Shown: positions 18,001 to 24,000, counted from the whole stretch's first letter. The stretch is DNA of 63,990 nucleotides, filler included, from Ferroacidibacillus organovorans (GCF_001642725.1; 5 parts of 5 records of this genome joined end to end with filler, not necessarily neighbours in it); one strand, 5' to 3'. Made by a program: the numbers.

Positions 18001-21000
18001 CGCGCATCGCGAAGGCGACCGGATTGTCTAACGGGCAGCTTCAGAACATGATCACGGAGAATGAAACGGGACGACTGTTTGGCATTTGGGGTGTTTCAAT
18101 GGTCAATGTCATGCAACTCAACGAGATGATCCTGCAGTTTCAAGGAAAACAGGTTGTGAACGTCGGATGAAAACCCCTGACGGAGCGCGCGATGATGAGC
18201 TGAAATGCGCAGAAACGGGCGCGCTGAAACTGTTCATCGGTTCCGCGCCAGGTGTGGGCAAGACGTATACGATGTTGCGCGCGGCGAATGATCTGCGCGC
18301 CCGCGGGCTCGACGTGGTCATTGGACTGATGGACCATCACGGTCGTCCTGAAACGGAGATGCAGGTTGGTTCGCTTGAAATCATTGCCCCTCTAACGCTC
18401 CACGTCAAAGGGCGGACATTTGAAGAGGTGAATTTACAGGCGATTTGCGCGCGCAATCCAGACATTGTCGTGATTGATGAACTGGCGCACACAAACGCCC
18501 CTGGTTCCCAGTTTCCTAAACGCTACATGGATGTGGAGTATCTGCTCGATCACGGGATCTCCGTCCTGAGTGCGGTGAATGTGCAGCACATTGAAGGCAT
18601 CCACGAAGAGGCGGAAGTGGTGACAGGCATCTCTGTGAAGGAACTGATCCCGGCCGCCTTTTTGCGCAAGGCGCGCGAGGTTGAAGTGATCGACGTGACG
18701 CCAGAGACGCTGCGCCAGCGCCTGCTTGACGGGAGTATCTATCCGCGCGACAAAGTCAATCACGCGCTGCAAAACTTTTTTCAGAAGTCGAACCTGTCGG
18801 GTCTACGCGAACTCGCGCTCCGAGTAGTCGCAGAGGATGTGGAAGAGCGACTGCAAAACGCGTACGGACGCAATAAAATTCCTGGACCTGTCGGAGCGAA
18901 AGAGACGATCATGGTGTGCGTGAATTATCTCGTGCGCGCACAGCCGTTGATCTCGCGCGGTTATCGCATGGCAAAACGTCTGAAGGCGGACCTCTACGTT
19001 TTGTGCGTCAGCGATGTGGCGGAGGATCTGATCTCCGAGAAAGAGCGGGAGCGCATACGCCGCTTGAATCATCTGGCGATGGAGTATGACGCGGAGTGGA
19101 TTCTTGAGCCGCGCAATGATCGCAAAGTGGGCGAGGTGATCATGAGCGTTGCTGAGCGAATGAACGTGACGCAGATTGTCTTTGGCCAGACGTCCAAGAA
19201 TAGGCGATGGCGCTTGGGGGTCGACGCGAGCCCTGTGCGCCACCTGATGCGCTCGATGCGCTATGTCGATCTGCGGATCATGGGGTGGGACAGCGAGGTT
19301 TCGACACCTCACGATCACGCGCACGGAGATGAACCTGGCAGCGGCTCTCACCCGCTGCGTGACGCGTCGGCGTGGGCAAAGGATGGGCGTCGCGGCAAGC
19401 TCACGATCTACATCGGGGCGGCGCCGGGGGTCGGCAAGACGTACAAGATGCTGCAGGACGCGCGCGATTGGCGGAAAAAAGGCGTCGACGTCGTTGTTGG
19501 CTTGATCGAGACGCACGGACGCGAAGAGACGATCGCGCAGTTTACGGGCCTTGAAGTGCTGCCGAAAAGAGAAGTCGCCATCGGGATTCCGCTCTATGAC
19601 GAACTCGATGTCGAAGGGATCTTGCGCCGCAAGCCGCAGGTCGTTTTGATTGATGAATTGGCACACACAAACGCGCCGGGGAGCATGCACGAAAAGCGCT
19701 ATCAGGACATTCTCCTGCTCTTGGAGCGCGGAATCGACGTGGTGACGGCAGTCAACGTCCAGCATCTGGAGAGCCTACACGACAAGGTGGAGCACATCAC
19801 GGGTGTACGCGTGCGCGAGCGGGTTCCGGACTGGTTCATGAAGGTGGCGTCTGAGGTGAAGCTGATCGACGTGACACCGGAGACGCTCCAACAGCGCTTG
19901 CTCGACGGAAAGATCTACAGCCAGGACAAAATCGAGCGCGCCTTGAGCCACTTTTTTCAGATCGCCAATCTCTCGGCGCTGCGCGAAATCGCGTTGCTGG
20001 AAGTCGCAGACGACGTAGATCAGCGCATGGAAAAGGTGCGCGAAGACGAGGCACCAAAGCCGCGCGAGCGCATTCTTGTGTGTGTCAACCACCGTCCCCA
20101 CTCGGAAAAGCTGATTCGCCGCGGCTGGCGCATCGCCGATCGACTCAACGCAGAGCTTTGGGTGCTTGTCGTCATTGTCGATGAGAAGCTCTCCGAGCAG
20201 GAAGAGCACGACCTTTTGCGCATCCGCAAACTGAGTGAGCAGTTTGACGCCCAGTTTATCACGCGCCCTGTCGCGAACCACAGCGTCGGCTGTACGATTG
20301 TCGATGTCTCGAAGGAGCTCCAGGCCAAGCAGTTGGTGACGGGGCAACCGATCCTCGCGCGCGGACCGCTGCAGTTCTTGCGCAAGACGCCGATCGACTA
20401 TGTGCTTGAAAACGGGGACTTTGTCGATCTGCACATCGTCGGCATCGCGCGCGACTCTTAGTCGTGAGCCGCGCGCTCCTCAATTTCGCAGCAGATGAGC
20501 CCAAAATAGGTGGGAGCCTCGTAGGAGAGGAACCGTACGCGCCGCACATCCCGCGGAATAGCGCCGGCGAGAATCAGGGATTGCCAGATGCCGTCAGGTT
20601 TGGCTTCCTCGATAAAGTCGGGGGAAAAGTCGCCGAGCGCCTCGATCTCCCCCGCTTTTAAAAGCTGTACAACGCGTTCGTCAAGCTTGGCGGCGGACGG
20701 ATGGTACCCGTAGGGGCCGTTCGCCTCGTGCGCGTGCGCCCAGTCACAACTCGCGATGAGGCCAACGCGCTTGCCGGACTTCGCGACGGCGCGCGCGAGG
20801 GACTCGCCAAAGCGCAGGTGGTCTGCCATGCTGACGAGCCGCGACGGCGTGATCACCACCACAGGCACATCCGGCATGAACGTGAGGGGAATCTGCGCGC
20901 CCCAATCGAGTGCAAGGCACGCGAGAGGGCCGTCGCTCGTGGCGTATTGCAGCGCGCCCACCGCGAGGTGATCGTCGGTCGCCGCTTTGACGATGGCGCG

Positions 21001-24000
21001 CGCGAGTTCGCGGTCGACGGTGCGCGATGTCGCTTGCTGTCGCCCCGCAAATTCGAGAATTCCGCTCATGCGCGCGCTGCAGGCGACGGCAAACTGCCCG
21101 TCGATGCGCGTGCCGTGCGGCGTGAGCACGATGATCGTGTCGGGCTTTGCGGCCGCCATACCTAAGCCTAGCGTCTGCATGCTTTGGCGCGTTTTTTCCA
21201 TCAGCGCCGGGTTGTCCGGGGACAGATCCTCCAGGATCTCGTAGCCGTGCGGCGTGATCGCAGAAAAGACGAAGGTTGGCATTGTGCGCGTACCCCTTTC
21301 GAATTTGTGATTGTGTGCGGCTCGGACTGCATCTTCTAGGGCGCGGTGTGCGGCTCGACGGTCGTGAGCTTTTCGTAGAAATCGAGGTATTTATCCTTGT
21401 CGGCACTCGCCCGCAAGGCCATCGCAGTGCGCGGATGCTCGTCGAGCATGCCTGTGATCGCGTACGGGATGGTGTATCCCCATTCTACCTTTTCGCGCAT
21501 AGGAATGAACAGCTTTTCCAGTGGCTCAAGGAGCGGGCGCACATCATAGCGCGTGCCGTGAAGTTGGCTCACGAGGAGTTCAGTCGGGCAGTTTCCGGCG
21601 GCGCGCCCCATGCCAAAGACGGATGCATCGAGGAATGCCACACCCTGCTCGATCGCCGTCAGGGTATTAGCAAACGCCATCTGCATGTTGTTGTGCGTGT
21701 GAATGCCGAGCGCCTTTTTCGGTGCGAACTTCTGAAACTTTGCGACAAGGTACTCGATATCCCGTTGGAGGAGGCTGCCAAAGGAATCGACCACGTACAC
21801 CACGTCGACCGGGCTTTCGTTTAAAACTTCGAGCGCCTCGTTGAGGTCATTCTCTTTGGCGTGCGACACCGCCATGATGTTGAGCGTGGTCTCGTAGCCG
21901 AGGGCGTGAAACTTGCTCGCAAGGTCGATGCCCTTATCCACATCCTTCAGGTAGCATGCCACGCGGATCAAATCGAGATAGCTCTCGCTGCGGTGCACGA
22001 TGTCCCGCTCGTCCACGCGCCCGATGTCGACGAGGGCGGAGAGTTTGGTGTGCGTTTTCTCGCCGATCGTCTCGCGGATCAGATCCTCCGTCAGGTACGC
22101 CCACGGCCCGGCGTTTGGAAGATGGTGCAGTTTGGGTGAGTTTTTGTAGCCGAGTTCCATGTAATCGACGCCGGACAGGCTCAGCGCCTGATAAAGCGTG
22201 CGGACGAACGCCTGCGAAAAATCCCAATTGTTCACAAGCCCGCCGTCGCGGATGGTGCAATCGAGCACCTTTACATCTCGTTGTTTGATCGACATGATTA
22301 TTCCCCCTGTTTCGTTGCGTCGCGTTACGTGCATTTGCTCGCATGAGAGCTAGAGCGCGGATTCATCAGACTCGCGCGCGCCAGTTCTCGCATGCGCTGA
22401 TCGCCGCCTGCTGCCACAGAATGCAAAAAGGCCGCGTCTCCCCCAGGGACGAGACACAGCCTCGCGGTACCACCCTGGAAGAGGGCGCGACCCTCCACCT
22501 TCCTTGTCATAACGGCGGCGCGATTGCGCGACCGACCTGGACTACTTCACGTTTCGCCCAGATAGCTCCGAAGTGTACTTCACGCGCAGTCATCGACCGG
22601 TTCGCATCACCCACCGGTTTTCTGAGCGATCGCCTGCGGCTACTCTCTCCATCTTCGCTGTTCGTGGTGTAAAATTGGGAGCATCGTAGCACATTCGATC
22701 TTGACCCGTCAATGGTGGAGTGAGGGAGATTTTTACGTGAATTGGCACGGATAATATCCATGATTTATAGGATTGCGTTTTCATCATGATTTCAGAGAAA
22801 TCTGTCAAATATCGATTTGTAGCCACAAAAGGCGATTCGCAAGACCATTTTGTTAATGACTTAAGATCAAAGTTATTCCTAGCCTATGTACGCGGGTGCA
22901 AGGAACGGATGGAATTTTTGAAACTTCCGCGAATATGGGCATTCGCATCACATAAATCATCTTGAATGCATTATCGTTTCAAATCCAATTGGATGGTTTC
23001 AGATTGTTGTTCCCATTTTACCTTAACTTTGACAGGCAGGTATTCCTTAAAACCTTCGAGCATCATATGGGTATAACCACCACTACCACTGATTGCATCA
23101 AGGCAGATGGGCACCCTTATCGATGTTTGATAGTTTTTACTCCATGAGAACCCTAATGAGTGATACTCATACTCTACAATCTTGATATGAGGAACTGTCA
23201 AACCGATGTAAACCAAATGCATCCATTGTTCAATTTCTATAAATGATTTGTTCTGCGATGATTTCCCTTTCAGCGTATATTCAACTTCCCAGTTGTGACT
23301 AGATCCACGATAGATAAGGCCGCGTTCCATTTTTTCGACGAGTTCGATAAGGTGAGGCGTTAGTTCATTATCGGACGACATATGCATCTACTCCCTAATT
23401 TAGTATTTTATGGTGAATATCCACTCGACGCGATCAAAATGGAGTGGAATTTTTCTATTTGTTGTTGATACGAATGGTATTGGCCATTGTTCCATTAATG
23501 ACAAAAATGCAGTGTGTTTATTATCAGCGAGGAGTAGCTTGGGGATAAACGTGAATTCCGCATATCCGTGAGAATTCATTTCAATTTGGCATACTTTGCT
23601 TGGATTTCCCTGTGTTGTATTGCAATAATTTTGGGGTAAGTTAGGTTTAGGATATCCTAACTTAAATTTGCCCGCAGTTCACCCTACCAGTGATTGTCGA
23701 TTTTTGCGACGCAACAGAACGACACCTAGCCACTTGCCCATAGTAACGGAGCTAGACTCTCCGGCATCCATCGCACTTCTTCCTTCATTTCTTCCAATGG
23801 CGGCATCATGAAGACCTCATCTTGCGCTTGGGGTAGCCGAGACAAGGTGTAAAGCGCAGCGTCCCTTGCAGGATACGGTACACTTTTTACTCGTTCAAAT
23901 GCTCACAAAGTGGCTCAAAACGAATTTAGCAAATATAATACTGGTTGATCCAGACGGAGCCCTGTTGAACACGTTGCGCTTGGGTCCCGTCTGGTCGAAC

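Follow-up and report, generated by a model that had tools for sequence, protein, structure and literature searches.

A tyrosine-specific T-box leader precedes an uncharacterised DRE-TIM protein in Ferroacidibacillus organovorans, a candidate enzyme of aromatic amino acid supply

Introduction

DRE-TIM aldolases form or cleave 4-hydroxy-2-oxo acids, and in DRE-TIM metallolyases the metal ligands are the Asp of the DxTxRDG motif and the HxH motif. In DmpG/BphI (PDB 1nvm, 4lrs), the His of RDGxH is catalytic. RhiG, an aldolase of rhizocticin biosynthesis, resembles DmpG but has no partner dehydrogenase, and joins a pyruvate enolate derived from oxaloacetate to an aldehyde. DAHP can be viewed in the same sense, as pyruvate plus erythrose 4-phosphate (E4P). 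A laboratory-evolved KDPGal aldolase reportedly replaces DAHP synthase, so that these two compounds can sustain aromatic biosynthesis; it is a class I aldolase and differs in fold from the protein described here. We know of no natural enzyme that forms DAHP from pyruvate and E4P. DAHP synthases of type I (PF00793; AroA and AroF/G/H) and type II (PF01474) use PEP, and Escherichia coli AroF is an isozyme under tyrosine control.

Among regulatory elements, the closest described system is the Bacillus subtilis tyrS-type T-box (RF00230, Tyr class). The Tyr T-box targets given in passages of Wels et al. 2008 (PMC2494555) are tyrS, a transporter of the NhaC family, a tyrosine operon of the B. cereus group and phenylalanine hydroxylase; no aldolase is among those listed there. 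Here we describe such a leader in front of an aldolase-like gene of F. organovorans, in a stretch of 63,990 nucleotides (the window).

Results

A tyrosine T-box leader and its operon

The following features were identified, in the order of transcription:

22683..22712, minus strand: sigma-70-like promoter TTGACG-18 nt-TACGAT with TG extension (consensus scan, 9/12 matches)
22442..22664, minus strand: T-box leader with Stem I and its specifier loop, Stem III and T-box sequence (Rfam RF00230)
22575..22577, minus strand: specifier codon UAC (Tyr) in the context GAA-G-UAC-A (Rfam consensus alignment and sequence)
22440..22480, minus strand: antiterminator helix with a 7-nt bulge (fold -19.3 kcal/mol)
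22418..22466, minus strand: intrinsic terminator, a G+C-rich hairpin followed by UUUUU at 22429-22425 (fold -26.1 kcal/mol, z -3.5, and sequence)
21336..22295, minus strand: DRE-TIM (HMGL-like) aldolase-like protein P0001, 319 aa (ORF and PF00682)
20458..21282, minus strand: LigB-family (TK2203-like) protein P0002, 274 aa (PF02900 at 7.8e-28)

The leader has all sequence features of a transcriptional T-box. Its match to RF00230 spans model positions 1-219 of 219 at 99.9 bits (gathering score 93, E 7.8e-21), and the whole-genome T-box search recovered the same place; score, extent and specifier are those that an earlier note on this DNA had reported. The specifier UAC is followed by a purine, and three tRNA-Tyr(GUA) genes are present in the genome. 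Within the antiterminator bulge, UGGU (22472-22469) complements the ACCA 3' end of tRNA-Tyr, which in this genome reads ...CCTCC-A-CCA. The terminator overlaps the 3' half of the antiterminator, so that the two predicted helices share one strand and are mutually exclusive. Immediately 5' of the leader lies the putative promoter, a pattern match of a kind seen twice in the region against 2.2 sites expected by chance.

These pairing elements are read directly from the sequence, and the response to uncharged tRNA-Tyr would follow from them. The leader would sense this tRNA by transcription attenuation: the specifier would pair with anticodon GUA and the bulge with the ACCA end, both pairings would stabilise the antiterminator, and transcription would continue into the two-gene operon. 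The full-length match, UAC plus purine, UGGU bulge and terminator/antiterminator are all shared with the B. subtilis tyrS-type T-box. Unlike the latter, the leader described here would control an uncharacterised metabolic gene, and tyrS of this genome (G000:C16:702-1883) has no T-box, with no match up to E=10 across its 3383-base locus, in agreement with the earlier note.

The same note had counted only three T-boxes in the genome. This count is a threshold artefact, since 12 matches are found at E<=0.001, of which three exceed the gathering score. Judged by reading of the downstream ORFs, the other T-boxes precede aminoacyl-tRNA synthetase genes and genes of first-step enzymes (serA-like, cysE-like and citramalate/IPM-synthase-like). 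The shikimate pathway and tyrA had been described as complete, and this held for the members that were looked at (DAHP synthase, DHQ synthase and TyrA).

The P0001 gene has a ribosome-binding site, GGGGGAA, 6 nt 5' of its ATG. P0002 starts 53 nt past the aldolase stop with a ribosome-binding site of its own, and no terminator was found in this gap, so the two genes are probably co-transcribed. P0002 scores 30.8 against the HpaD equivalog, under the cut-off of 315.95, and its best structure match is TK2203 (5hee, 2.3e-38), which its depositors call 'uncharacterised'. A LigB gene directly follows the aldolase at two of the nine loci of the order, in this genome and in G046, and thus only in this genus, as had been noted before. 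LigB-family homologs occur in 44 of the 64 genomes of the order; outside the genus their neighbours vary from locus to locus, and a T-box motif pattern found no T-box before the gene at any of 18 loci scanned. In this operon, the LigB gene would seem to be a passenger, added in this lineage only.

Family of the aldolase-like protein

The sole Pfam match of P0001 is PF00682 (6e-25, residues 8-250), consistent with its earlier description as a 319-aa HMGL-like protein. P0001 shares the HMGL-like TIM-barrel family and the DxTxRDG and HxH metal motifs with DmpG/BphI, and the stretches LDCTIRDGG and GIHTHNN are conserved across all aligned relatives. The nearest structures named previously were also recovered, namely 3dxi (1.4e-44), 4lrs (3.7e-22) and, for the LigB protein, 5hee. 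The best solved relative, 3dxi, is a 'putative aldolase' by its depositor's name, and has RDGGY..NWDF, GYRN and GMGRGAGN in common with P0001; we take it to be BVU_2661 of Bacteroides vulgatus, whose full-length protein is presumably longer.

P0001 was considered as a 4-hydroxy-2-oxovalerate aldolase (HOA) and rejected. Identity to DmpG/BphI-type aldolases is 26-29%, and scores against the HOA models TIGR03217 and NF006049 are 119.3 bits (cut-off 286) and 130.1 bits (cut-off 229). In place of the HOA motifs, P0001 has GYKNSPK, GMGRAAGNCPTE and NEHPRTA. True HOA genes of the order encode RDGMH where P0001 has RDGGL, the catalytic His two residues after RDG being replaced by Leu; because of this replacement, aldolase chemistry is not assured. 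In addition, the Pfam search gave no match to the DmpG_comm domain (PF07836), and no acylating acetaldehyde dehydrogenase was found among the Pfam-scanned ORFs of the window and the eight other loci of the order. The first, conserved gene of the operon would encode a metal-dependent DRE-TIM C-C lyase of a distinct subfamily. P0001 also had no match to the DAHP synthase families PF00793 and PF01474 in the Pfam search, and any comparison with DAHP synthases made below means 'works like', not 'is a member'.

Distribution of the T-box and aldolase pair

Orthologs of P0001 (67-100% identity) occur in nine of the 64 genomes of the order, this one included. Each of the eight other loci has a same-strand T-box directly upstream (seven over the gathering score, one at 85.5 bits), with the specifier loop GAA-R-UAC-A in 8/8; both the ortholog count and the loop had been reported earlier and were re-found. 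A UAC T-box is thus present at all nine loci.

The pair is not confined to Alicyclobacillales. It was detected in a Pseudogracilibacillus MAG, L057 (118.5 bits, GAA-U-UAC-A), and on metagenome contigs L075, where the T-box is doubled in tandem (128.6 and 128.3 bits), L078 and L083, which form a second set in a low-GC Bacillaceae-like clade. The earlier view that homologs in other Bacilli families lack a T-box is contradicted by these four sequences, and of the claim that the pair is kept across Alicyclobacillales the retention stood while the restriction to that order fell. Two separate clades retain the pair, with protein identities of 63-100% and a G+C of the leader match of 0.61 in one and 0.40 in the other, and the specifier is invariant in 13 of 13 leaders (nine loci of the order, L057, two in L075 and L083). 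In genome G067, the only two leaders read as UAC precede a TyrRS-like ORF and this aldolase gene; the regular expression used proposed a specifier for seven of its 18 T-boxes, the other 11 being unread, and gene names are again a reading of ORFs. A Paenibacillus-like family has the gene in 33 of 33 sampled genomes and no T-box at any of 24 scanned loci.

Homologs in aromatic and other gene neighbourhoods

In another Firmicutes family, we found a homolog 40% identical to P0001 over 285 aa, which shares with it the motifs RDGG, GYK, HxHNN, GMGRxAGNCP and WGY..HP. At six of eight homolog-carrying loci, in six genomes, this gene has trpE/G on one side and trpB on the other, within a trp operon that opens with a UGG (Trp) T-box (113.8 and 126.5 bits). 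In G900, of the same family, a type I-alpha DAHP synthase fills the slot before trpB, and in G910 the trp operon is kept with the homolog as a 75-aa remnant. Control by Tyr in one lineage and by Trp in another points to a step common to both, before chorismate. In G535 and G538, T-boxes with a Phe (UUC) specifier (102.1 and 95.3 bits) stand before DAHP synthase genes, so aromatic-specific T-box control of DAHP supply is normal in the phylum.

In one Bacilli family, the gene immediately downstream of the ortholog (66-70% identity) encodes a CM-fused (aroA-type) DAHP synthase and is followed by ccpA. G266 and G276 show this order, as does G211, where an opposite-strand ORF is inserted between the first two genes. 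In G244, of the genus of G266, the aldolase is followed by ccpA, and the DAHP synthase gene is absent from the syntenic site, the ortholog thus occupying the same chromosomal slot upstream of ccpA. The G244 assembly, a draft in 90 contigs in which 665 bases are masked, is 100% complete by marker genes. Neither a search for PF00793 (E<=1e-20) nor one with the G266 DAHP synthase (E<=1e-3; six of seven genomes of the family match) gave a hit in it, and a type II DAHP synthase was likewise not found. G244 retains aroB, tyrA and an intact aldolase.

G244 is the one genome among 47 gene carriers of the Bacilli sample in which DAHP synthase is missing. In the order, six of nine carriers have one, and the lack of a match in the other three is either explained or left unsettled by assembly gaps. 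The genome of L057, which bears the T-box, also has a DAHP synthase; in such genomes the aldolase would be redundant.

Two further contexts were observed. In G898 and G899, a TRAP transporter precedes the homolog, and a reductase of the old-yellow-enzyme type and a LysR regulator follow it, a catabolic-looking setting. Relatives at a greater distance (38%) are accompanied by cytidylyltransferases and by a HAD phosphatase, which resembles ulosonic-acid pathways.

Discussion

The leader features, the two clades and the G067 leaders support the proposal that expression of an uncharacterised DRE-TIM protein, a candidate tyrosine-supply enzyme, is induced through a Tyr-specific T-box. This core of the earlier note stood; the enzyme's connection is probably with the shared part of the aromatic pathway and not with tyrosine alone, given a homolog in a Trp-T-box trp operon and an ortholog that adjoins, and in one genome replaces, an aroA-type DAHP synthase. 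Gene neighbourhoods in several bacterial groups suggest that the aldolase is a previously unrecognised entry to the pathway for all aromatic amino acids.

We tentatively propose, at somewhat less than even odds, that P0001 is a PEP-independent, DAHP-forming aldolase feeding the shikimate entry. It would most likely make DAHP, a 4-hydroxy-2-oxo acid, from E4P and a pyruvate enolate donor (pyruvate or oxaloacetate) and would act as an isozyme of DAHP synthase under tyrosine control. The product would be that of the type I and type II enzymes, to which P0001 is unrelated in sequence, and a pyruvate enolate would take the place of PEP. Both groups would follow the same regulatory logic, with amino-acid-specific isozymes, T-box control and placement in trp operons. 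The trp, aroA and G244 contexts, the Phe T-boxes, the chemistry of DRE-TIM aldolases and the ulosonic-acid-like setting of distant relatives speak for the proposal; against it stand the redundancy with DAHP synthase in most carriers, the Leu in place of the catalytic His, the remnant in G910, the catabolic-looking neighbours in G898/G899 and the T-box-free loci of the Paenibacillus-like family.

A role at another step of the aromatic pathway is unlikely, yet has several observations in its favour. P0001 could supply E4P or PEP, act on a chorismate-derived enolpyruvyl or 2-oxo acid (prephenate, 4-hydroxyphenylpyruvate) or release the CM-fused DAHP synthase from feedback. A position next to aroA suits a helper and an isozyme equally well, and neighbours commonly have sequential or helper functions and are less often isozymes; control by Tyr as well as Trp T-boxes, retention of DAHP synthase by most carriers and absence of the HOA catalytic His also agree with it. 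However, G244 has aroB and tyrA and no detectable DAHP synthase, leaving a helper nothing to help, a Tyr-branch step would not explain the trp-operon placement, and to our knowledge no DRE-TIM reaction yields E4P or PEP.

Two further readings were considered. In this genus, P0001 could work with the LigB-type ring-cleavage enzyme as a pyruvate aldolase in the catabolism or salvage of an aromatic compound or a sugar acid, induced on tyrosine starvation to clear an analogue or recover carbon. The nearest named families are indeed meta-cleavage-pathway aldolases, a LigB-family gene shares the operon, and in G898/G899 the homolog lies beside a TRAP transporter, a flavin reductase and a LysR regulator. 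We consider this quite improbable: the LigB gene is elsewhere unlinked, with no T-box at the loci scanned, scores fall far under the HOA cut-offs, neither a DmpF-type partner nor DmpG_comm was found, and the trp-operon position, the aroA adjacency and the G244 case are left unexplained. The T-box might instead be metabolically meaningless, a tyrS-type leader duplicated before a neighbouring gene and persisting by descent; the arrangement is common to kin, the tree requires only two changes of state, and most gene carriers have no T-box. This we regard as very improbable, since the pair is held in clades with strongly diverged leaders, UAC is constant in all 13 leaders, L075 carries a tandem T-box pair, and the trp operon, aroA and G244 contexts are independent of this T-box.

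If P0001 indeed feeds the common aromatic pathway at its entry point, its subfamily could be a third, unrelated class of DAHP-forming enzymes, an extension that we hold with rather more doubt than hope. It would serve as a Tyr isozyme in Alicyclobacillales and some Bacillaceae, as a Trp isozyme in trp operons of another Firmicutes family and as the sole DAHP route in at least one species (G244). Shikimate entry would then proceed from a pyruvate enolate (pyruvate or oxaloacetate) and erythrose 4-phosphate, and PEP would not be used.

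A tyrosine T-box leader precedes the aldolase gene

Judged by its sequence, a complete Tyr T-box attenuator lies before the gene for P0001, a protein of a distinct DRE-TIM subfamily, and this arrangement is conserved in two clades. The site comprises the following features.

22712-22683, minus strand: sigma-70-like promoter TTGACG-18-TACGAT with TG (pattern match only; 2 such sites in the region vs 2.2 expected by chance)
22442-22664, minus strand: T-box leader (Rfam, 99.9 bits, gathering score 93, model positions 1-219 of 219)
21336-22295, minus strand: HMGL-like protein P0001, 319 aa (PF00682 at 6e-25)
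20458-21282, minus strand: LigB-family protein P0002, 274 aa (PF02900 at 7.8e-28)

The UAC (Tyr) specifier in the loop GAA-G-UAC-A, claimed in an earlier note, is present, with UAC at 22577-22575 (minus strand). Two alternative folds were found for the 3′ part of the leader: an antiterminator of -19.3 kcal/mol with the bulge UGGU, and a terminator hairpin of -26.1 kcal/mol (z -3.5) with UUUUU after it. Of the genome's three tRNA-Tyr(GUA) genes, two are complete, and these terminate in A-CCA, matching the UGGU of the leader. The 53-nt gap between the genes for P0001 and P0002 contains a ribosome-binding site and no terminator, and the 3′ end of the operon meets a KdpD-like gene of the opposite strand head-on.

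Directly upstream of the T-box promoter is a 138-aa ORF (22971-23387, minus strand) with no Pfam or NCBIfam match, which may not be a gene. Genes thiE and thiD (26862-28440, minus strand) are located upstream of the operon at a distance of about 4.5 kb, and in G059, another genome of the order, thiD and a TenA-family gene (L035:2642-4977) occur 2-4 kb from the ortholog. The proximity of thi genes in both cases is probably inherited synteny.

T-boxes in the genome and in Alicyclobacillales

The earlier count of only three T-boxes in this genome proved to be a threshold effect: 12 matches were detected at E≤0.001, 3 of them above the gathering score. Taking the first long ORF downstream of every leader, and naming these ORFs by our own judgement without a library scan, the other T-boxes precede trpS, pheS, leuS, hisS, ileS, valS, alaS and thrS, as well as a cysE-cysS pair, a serA-like gene and a citramalate/isopropylmalate-synthase-like gene. 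As had been proposed, tyrS (the TIGR00234 gene, G000:C16:702-1883) lacks any T-box match, even with the limit set at E=10.

Orthologs of P0001 were present in 9 of the 64 Alicyclobacillales genomes (67-100% identity), in agreement with the earlier survey; the 10 other matches in the order were 26-29% identical and resembled true 4-hydroxy-2-oxovalerate aldolase (HOA) genes. All eight other ortholog loci had a T-box upstream on the same strand, seven above the gathering score and one at 85.5 bits, and the reported specifier context GAA-R-UAC-A was found at each of them. In G042, close to the end of the contig, a second T-box (L021:2609-2861, 85.4 bits) begins about 160 nt past the stop codon of the aldolase gene; by eye, its specifier region resembles GUC (Val), and the target gene falls outside the contig.

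The pair outside the order

The view that the pairing is limited to Alicyclobacillales, with no T-box elsewhere in Bacilli, is contradicted by four loci (L057, L078, L083 and L075). Among 33 species-genome loci, L057, from a Pseudogracilibacillus MAG (63% identity), had a T-box of 118.5 bits with the context GAA-U-UAC-A immediately before the gene; a motif pattern, applied to 31 of the other species-genome loci, detected T-box sequence in none. The pair was also found in 3 of 14 metagenome loci examined (16 in total), namely L078, which is nearly identical to L057, L083 and L075. On the L075 contig (854-1306), the ortholog lies downstream of a tandem of full T-boxes (128.6 and 128.3 bits) that both carry UAC, which may make the response to tRNA-Tyr charging steeper. 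G067, the genome from which L057 comes, has 18 T-boxes; a pattern search proposed a specifier for 7 of the 18, and among these UAC was read twice, before a TyrRS-like ORF and before the aldolase gene.

In a tree of 36 proteins, from which near-duplicate Paenibacillus loci were left out, every Bacilli ortholog fell in one clade. The T-box bearers formed two subclades, one of all 9 Alicyclobacillales and one of 3 Bacillaceae-like rows, so that at least two changes of T-box state are needed, and a single origin of the pairing is compatible with this tree. Orthologs occurred in 47 of the 401 sampled Bacilli genomes, including 33 of 33 genomes of one Paenibacillus-like family; the T-box motif was found at none of the 28 new loci from this sample. 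Conserved neighbours, reported earlier to be lacking, were indeed absent across the 8 order loci, 32 genome loci and the metagenome loci examined.

Other leader elements were observed as well. Paenibacillus orthologs without a T-box (L048-L053, L064, L066-L068) share the leader motif CACTTTACCGCTTGAAAGCnAAAAAGC about 60-170 nt before the gene; it follows a good promoter, and AAAG(C) recurs in it about every 10 nt. The family with an aroA-adjacent gene has the imperfect palindrome CACTTAAACGCATACACGCATTAAAGTG (L256:6500-6560). Both elements may be novel protein- or RNA-level control sites.

The P0001 family

P0001 has the Asp and HxH metal motifs of a DRE-TIM protein. Assignment as an HOA was rejected: its scores of 119 and 130 bits compare with cut-offs of 286 and 229, the DmpG_comm domain and an aldehyde-dehydrogenase neighbour are both lacking, RDGGL replaces the RDGMH seen in true HOA genes of the order, and the subfamily motifs GYKNSPK, GMGRAAGNCPTE and NEHPRTA stand where HOA has its own. 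The nearest solved structure is, as previously noted, the "putative aldolase" 3dxi (1.4e-44), which carries these subfamily motifs too. Among 8000 scored candidates, 7611 homologs were detected at E≤1e-10, a set that takes in distant DRE-TIM relatives such as true HOA. One protein of 99% identity is annotated as coming from Ferroacidibacillus organovorans. An ESM Atlas search returned only HMGL-like clusters that were without a name or misnamed "H-NS". Distant relatives (38%; 575 aa) are neighboured by two cytidylyltransferases, a HAD hydrolase, an HpcH-type aldolase and a sugar epimerase/dehydratase; these neighbours are a hint of ulosonic-acid-type chemistry in the broader family.

Homologs in trp operons

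In the phylum sample, 11 of 401 genomes had a match. The homolog of G740 is 40% identical over 285 aa, keeps the subfamily motifs and lies in an operon of the order T-box (113.8 bits, UGG specifier), trpE/G fusion, DRE-TIM homolog, trpB, trpA, trpD, trpC, trpF. Within the class of G740, 8 of 112 genomes had the homolog, and the order trpEG-homolog-trpB was present at 6 of these 8 loci (5 of 5 genomes of one genus, and G895, whose trp operon is also headed by a T-box, of 126.5 bits). Three cases qualify this trp-operon link, the third being that of G900 below. In G898 and G899 the homolog is found downstream of a TRAP transporter rather than in the trp operon, and in the trpEG-trpB operon of G910 (L232:2739-2960) it is reduced to a 75-residue C-terminal remnant between trpEG and trpB.

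The trp operon of G900, a genome of the same family, contains between trpF and trpB a gene for a type I-alpha DAHP synthase (L237:374-1393) that is 62% identical to a protein passing NF009395, and in G535 and G538 T-boxes with Phe specifiers precede DAHP synthase genes. These cases imply that DAHP supply in the phylum is commonly placed under aromatic-specific T-boxes and in trp operons; the DRE-TIM gene takes up the same kinds of position. A separate observation concerns G912, where about 1.1 kb between trpF and trpB (L246:2759-3855) holds two ORFs (242 and 123 aa) that matched none of the trp or DAHP synthase queries used.

Adjacency to aroA and the case of G244

In one Bacilli family the aldolase gene adjoins aroA. 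The order in G266 and G276 is aldolase, chorismate mutase (CM)-fused DAHP synthase, CcpA (3oqm, 5.8e-145) and MTA/SAH nucleosidase; aroA-ccpA is the order of B. subtilis. G211 has the same order with an inserted opposite-strand ORF between aldolase and aroA (372 aa, L257:6486-7604, plus strand), which may be a mobile element.

PF00793 was matched at E≤1e-20 in 396 of 401 Bacilli, and the five genomes without it were four non-carriers of the aldolase and one carrier, G244, of this same family. In G244 the aldolase gene is followed by ccpA, with about 315 nt in place of the about 1450 nt in G266 and no N runs in the gap. No match to the G266 DAHP synthase was found at E≤0.001 in G244, an assembly that is 100% complete by marker genes yet draft (90 contigs, 665 masked bases); 6 of 7 genomes of the family do match. 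A type II DAHP synthase was not found in G244 either. The genome retains aroB and tyrA, and its aldolase is intact (70% identity to P0001).

Candidate roles of the aldolase

Because the gene is under Tyr control here and Trp control elsewhere, and adjoins aroA in a further family, we infer that it serves the common aromatic pathway. More specifically, the enzyme may form DAHP from a pyruvate enolate donor and E4P, a possibility that we place a little short of an even chance. It is suggested by the nature of DAHP as a 4-hydroxy-2-oxo acid, by the DAHP-synthase-like positions of the gene and by its persistence in G244. Against it count the canonical DAHP synthase that most carriers also keep, the missing catalytic His of HOA, the lineage that lost the gene from its trp operon, and one gene context that looks catabolic.

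Displacement of DAHP synthase was also considered within the order, where 3 of 64 genomes (G054, G056 and G059) lack a PF00793 match and all three carry the aldolase. However, in G056 the neighbouring aminotransferase is truncated by the contig end exactly where DAHP synthase is expected, and in G054 and G059 (73% and 88% complete) the adjacent aminotransferase is missing as well; these absences were treated as assembly gaps and not as evidence. Other carriers (G064-G068, G528, G535, G538, G649 and G740) all have a DAHP synthase, and there was no sign in 5 + 5 genomes of a type II enzyme masking the signal. Displacement of TyrA by the aldolase was rejected, as PF02153 was present in 9 of 9 order carriers and in each of 5 further carriers examined. 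The sister family within the order has another DAHP synthase gene next to tyrA (G038:C145:4739-6005, G042:C109:53-1271, G023:C1:3047696-3048912 and others); none of 8 such loci scanned had a Tyr T-box at E≤0.001.

The LigB gene follows the aldolase gene only in this genus, as stated earlier, and is present in 44 of the 64 genomes of the order. It was dismissed as a second T-box target: by motif pattern, none of 18 homolog loci outside the genus had a T-box before the gene, and the neighbours vary.

Other features of the window

The group II intron catalytic domain (RF00029) was matched twice, at 1165-1235 (plus strand, 45.7 bits) and 43520-43590 (minus strand, 48.6 bits); the two matches are mutually similar, suggesting two copies of one intron family. 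A kdpB-kdpC-KdpD-like cluster occupies 15512-20461 (plus strand); the window from 15467 on and its first 15366 bases come from different contigs. In the last ORF of this cluster (791 aa), two stretches match the KdpD sensor domain; the ORF also matches a "KdpD-like non-kinase potassium sensor" model and may encode a duplicated, kinase-less sensor.

Significance

Our literature search found no paper tying a T-box to the P0001 family or to HMGL-like proteins, although older T-box surveys may mention the gene, and none on "aldolase catalytic domain-containing" proteins. Other Tyr targets are listed in one such survey (Wels et al. 2008, PMC2494555).

The T-box specifier is among the few sequence features that alone name the metabolite to which a gene answers, and here it names tyrosine for a widespread, functionally uncharacterised protein family. 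In combination, the trp-operon position, the aroA adjacency and a genome that lost aroA and kept the gene make the proposed role directly testable. If DAHP is made without PEP, the family would close "missing DAHP synthase" gaps in metabolic models built from genomes, provide metabolic engineering with a natural way into aromatic biosynthesis that spares PEP, and be one more example of non-orthologous displacement where a central pathway begins. Otherwise, the Tyr and Trp T-box links would still flag an uncharacterised function in aromatic amino-acid metabolism.
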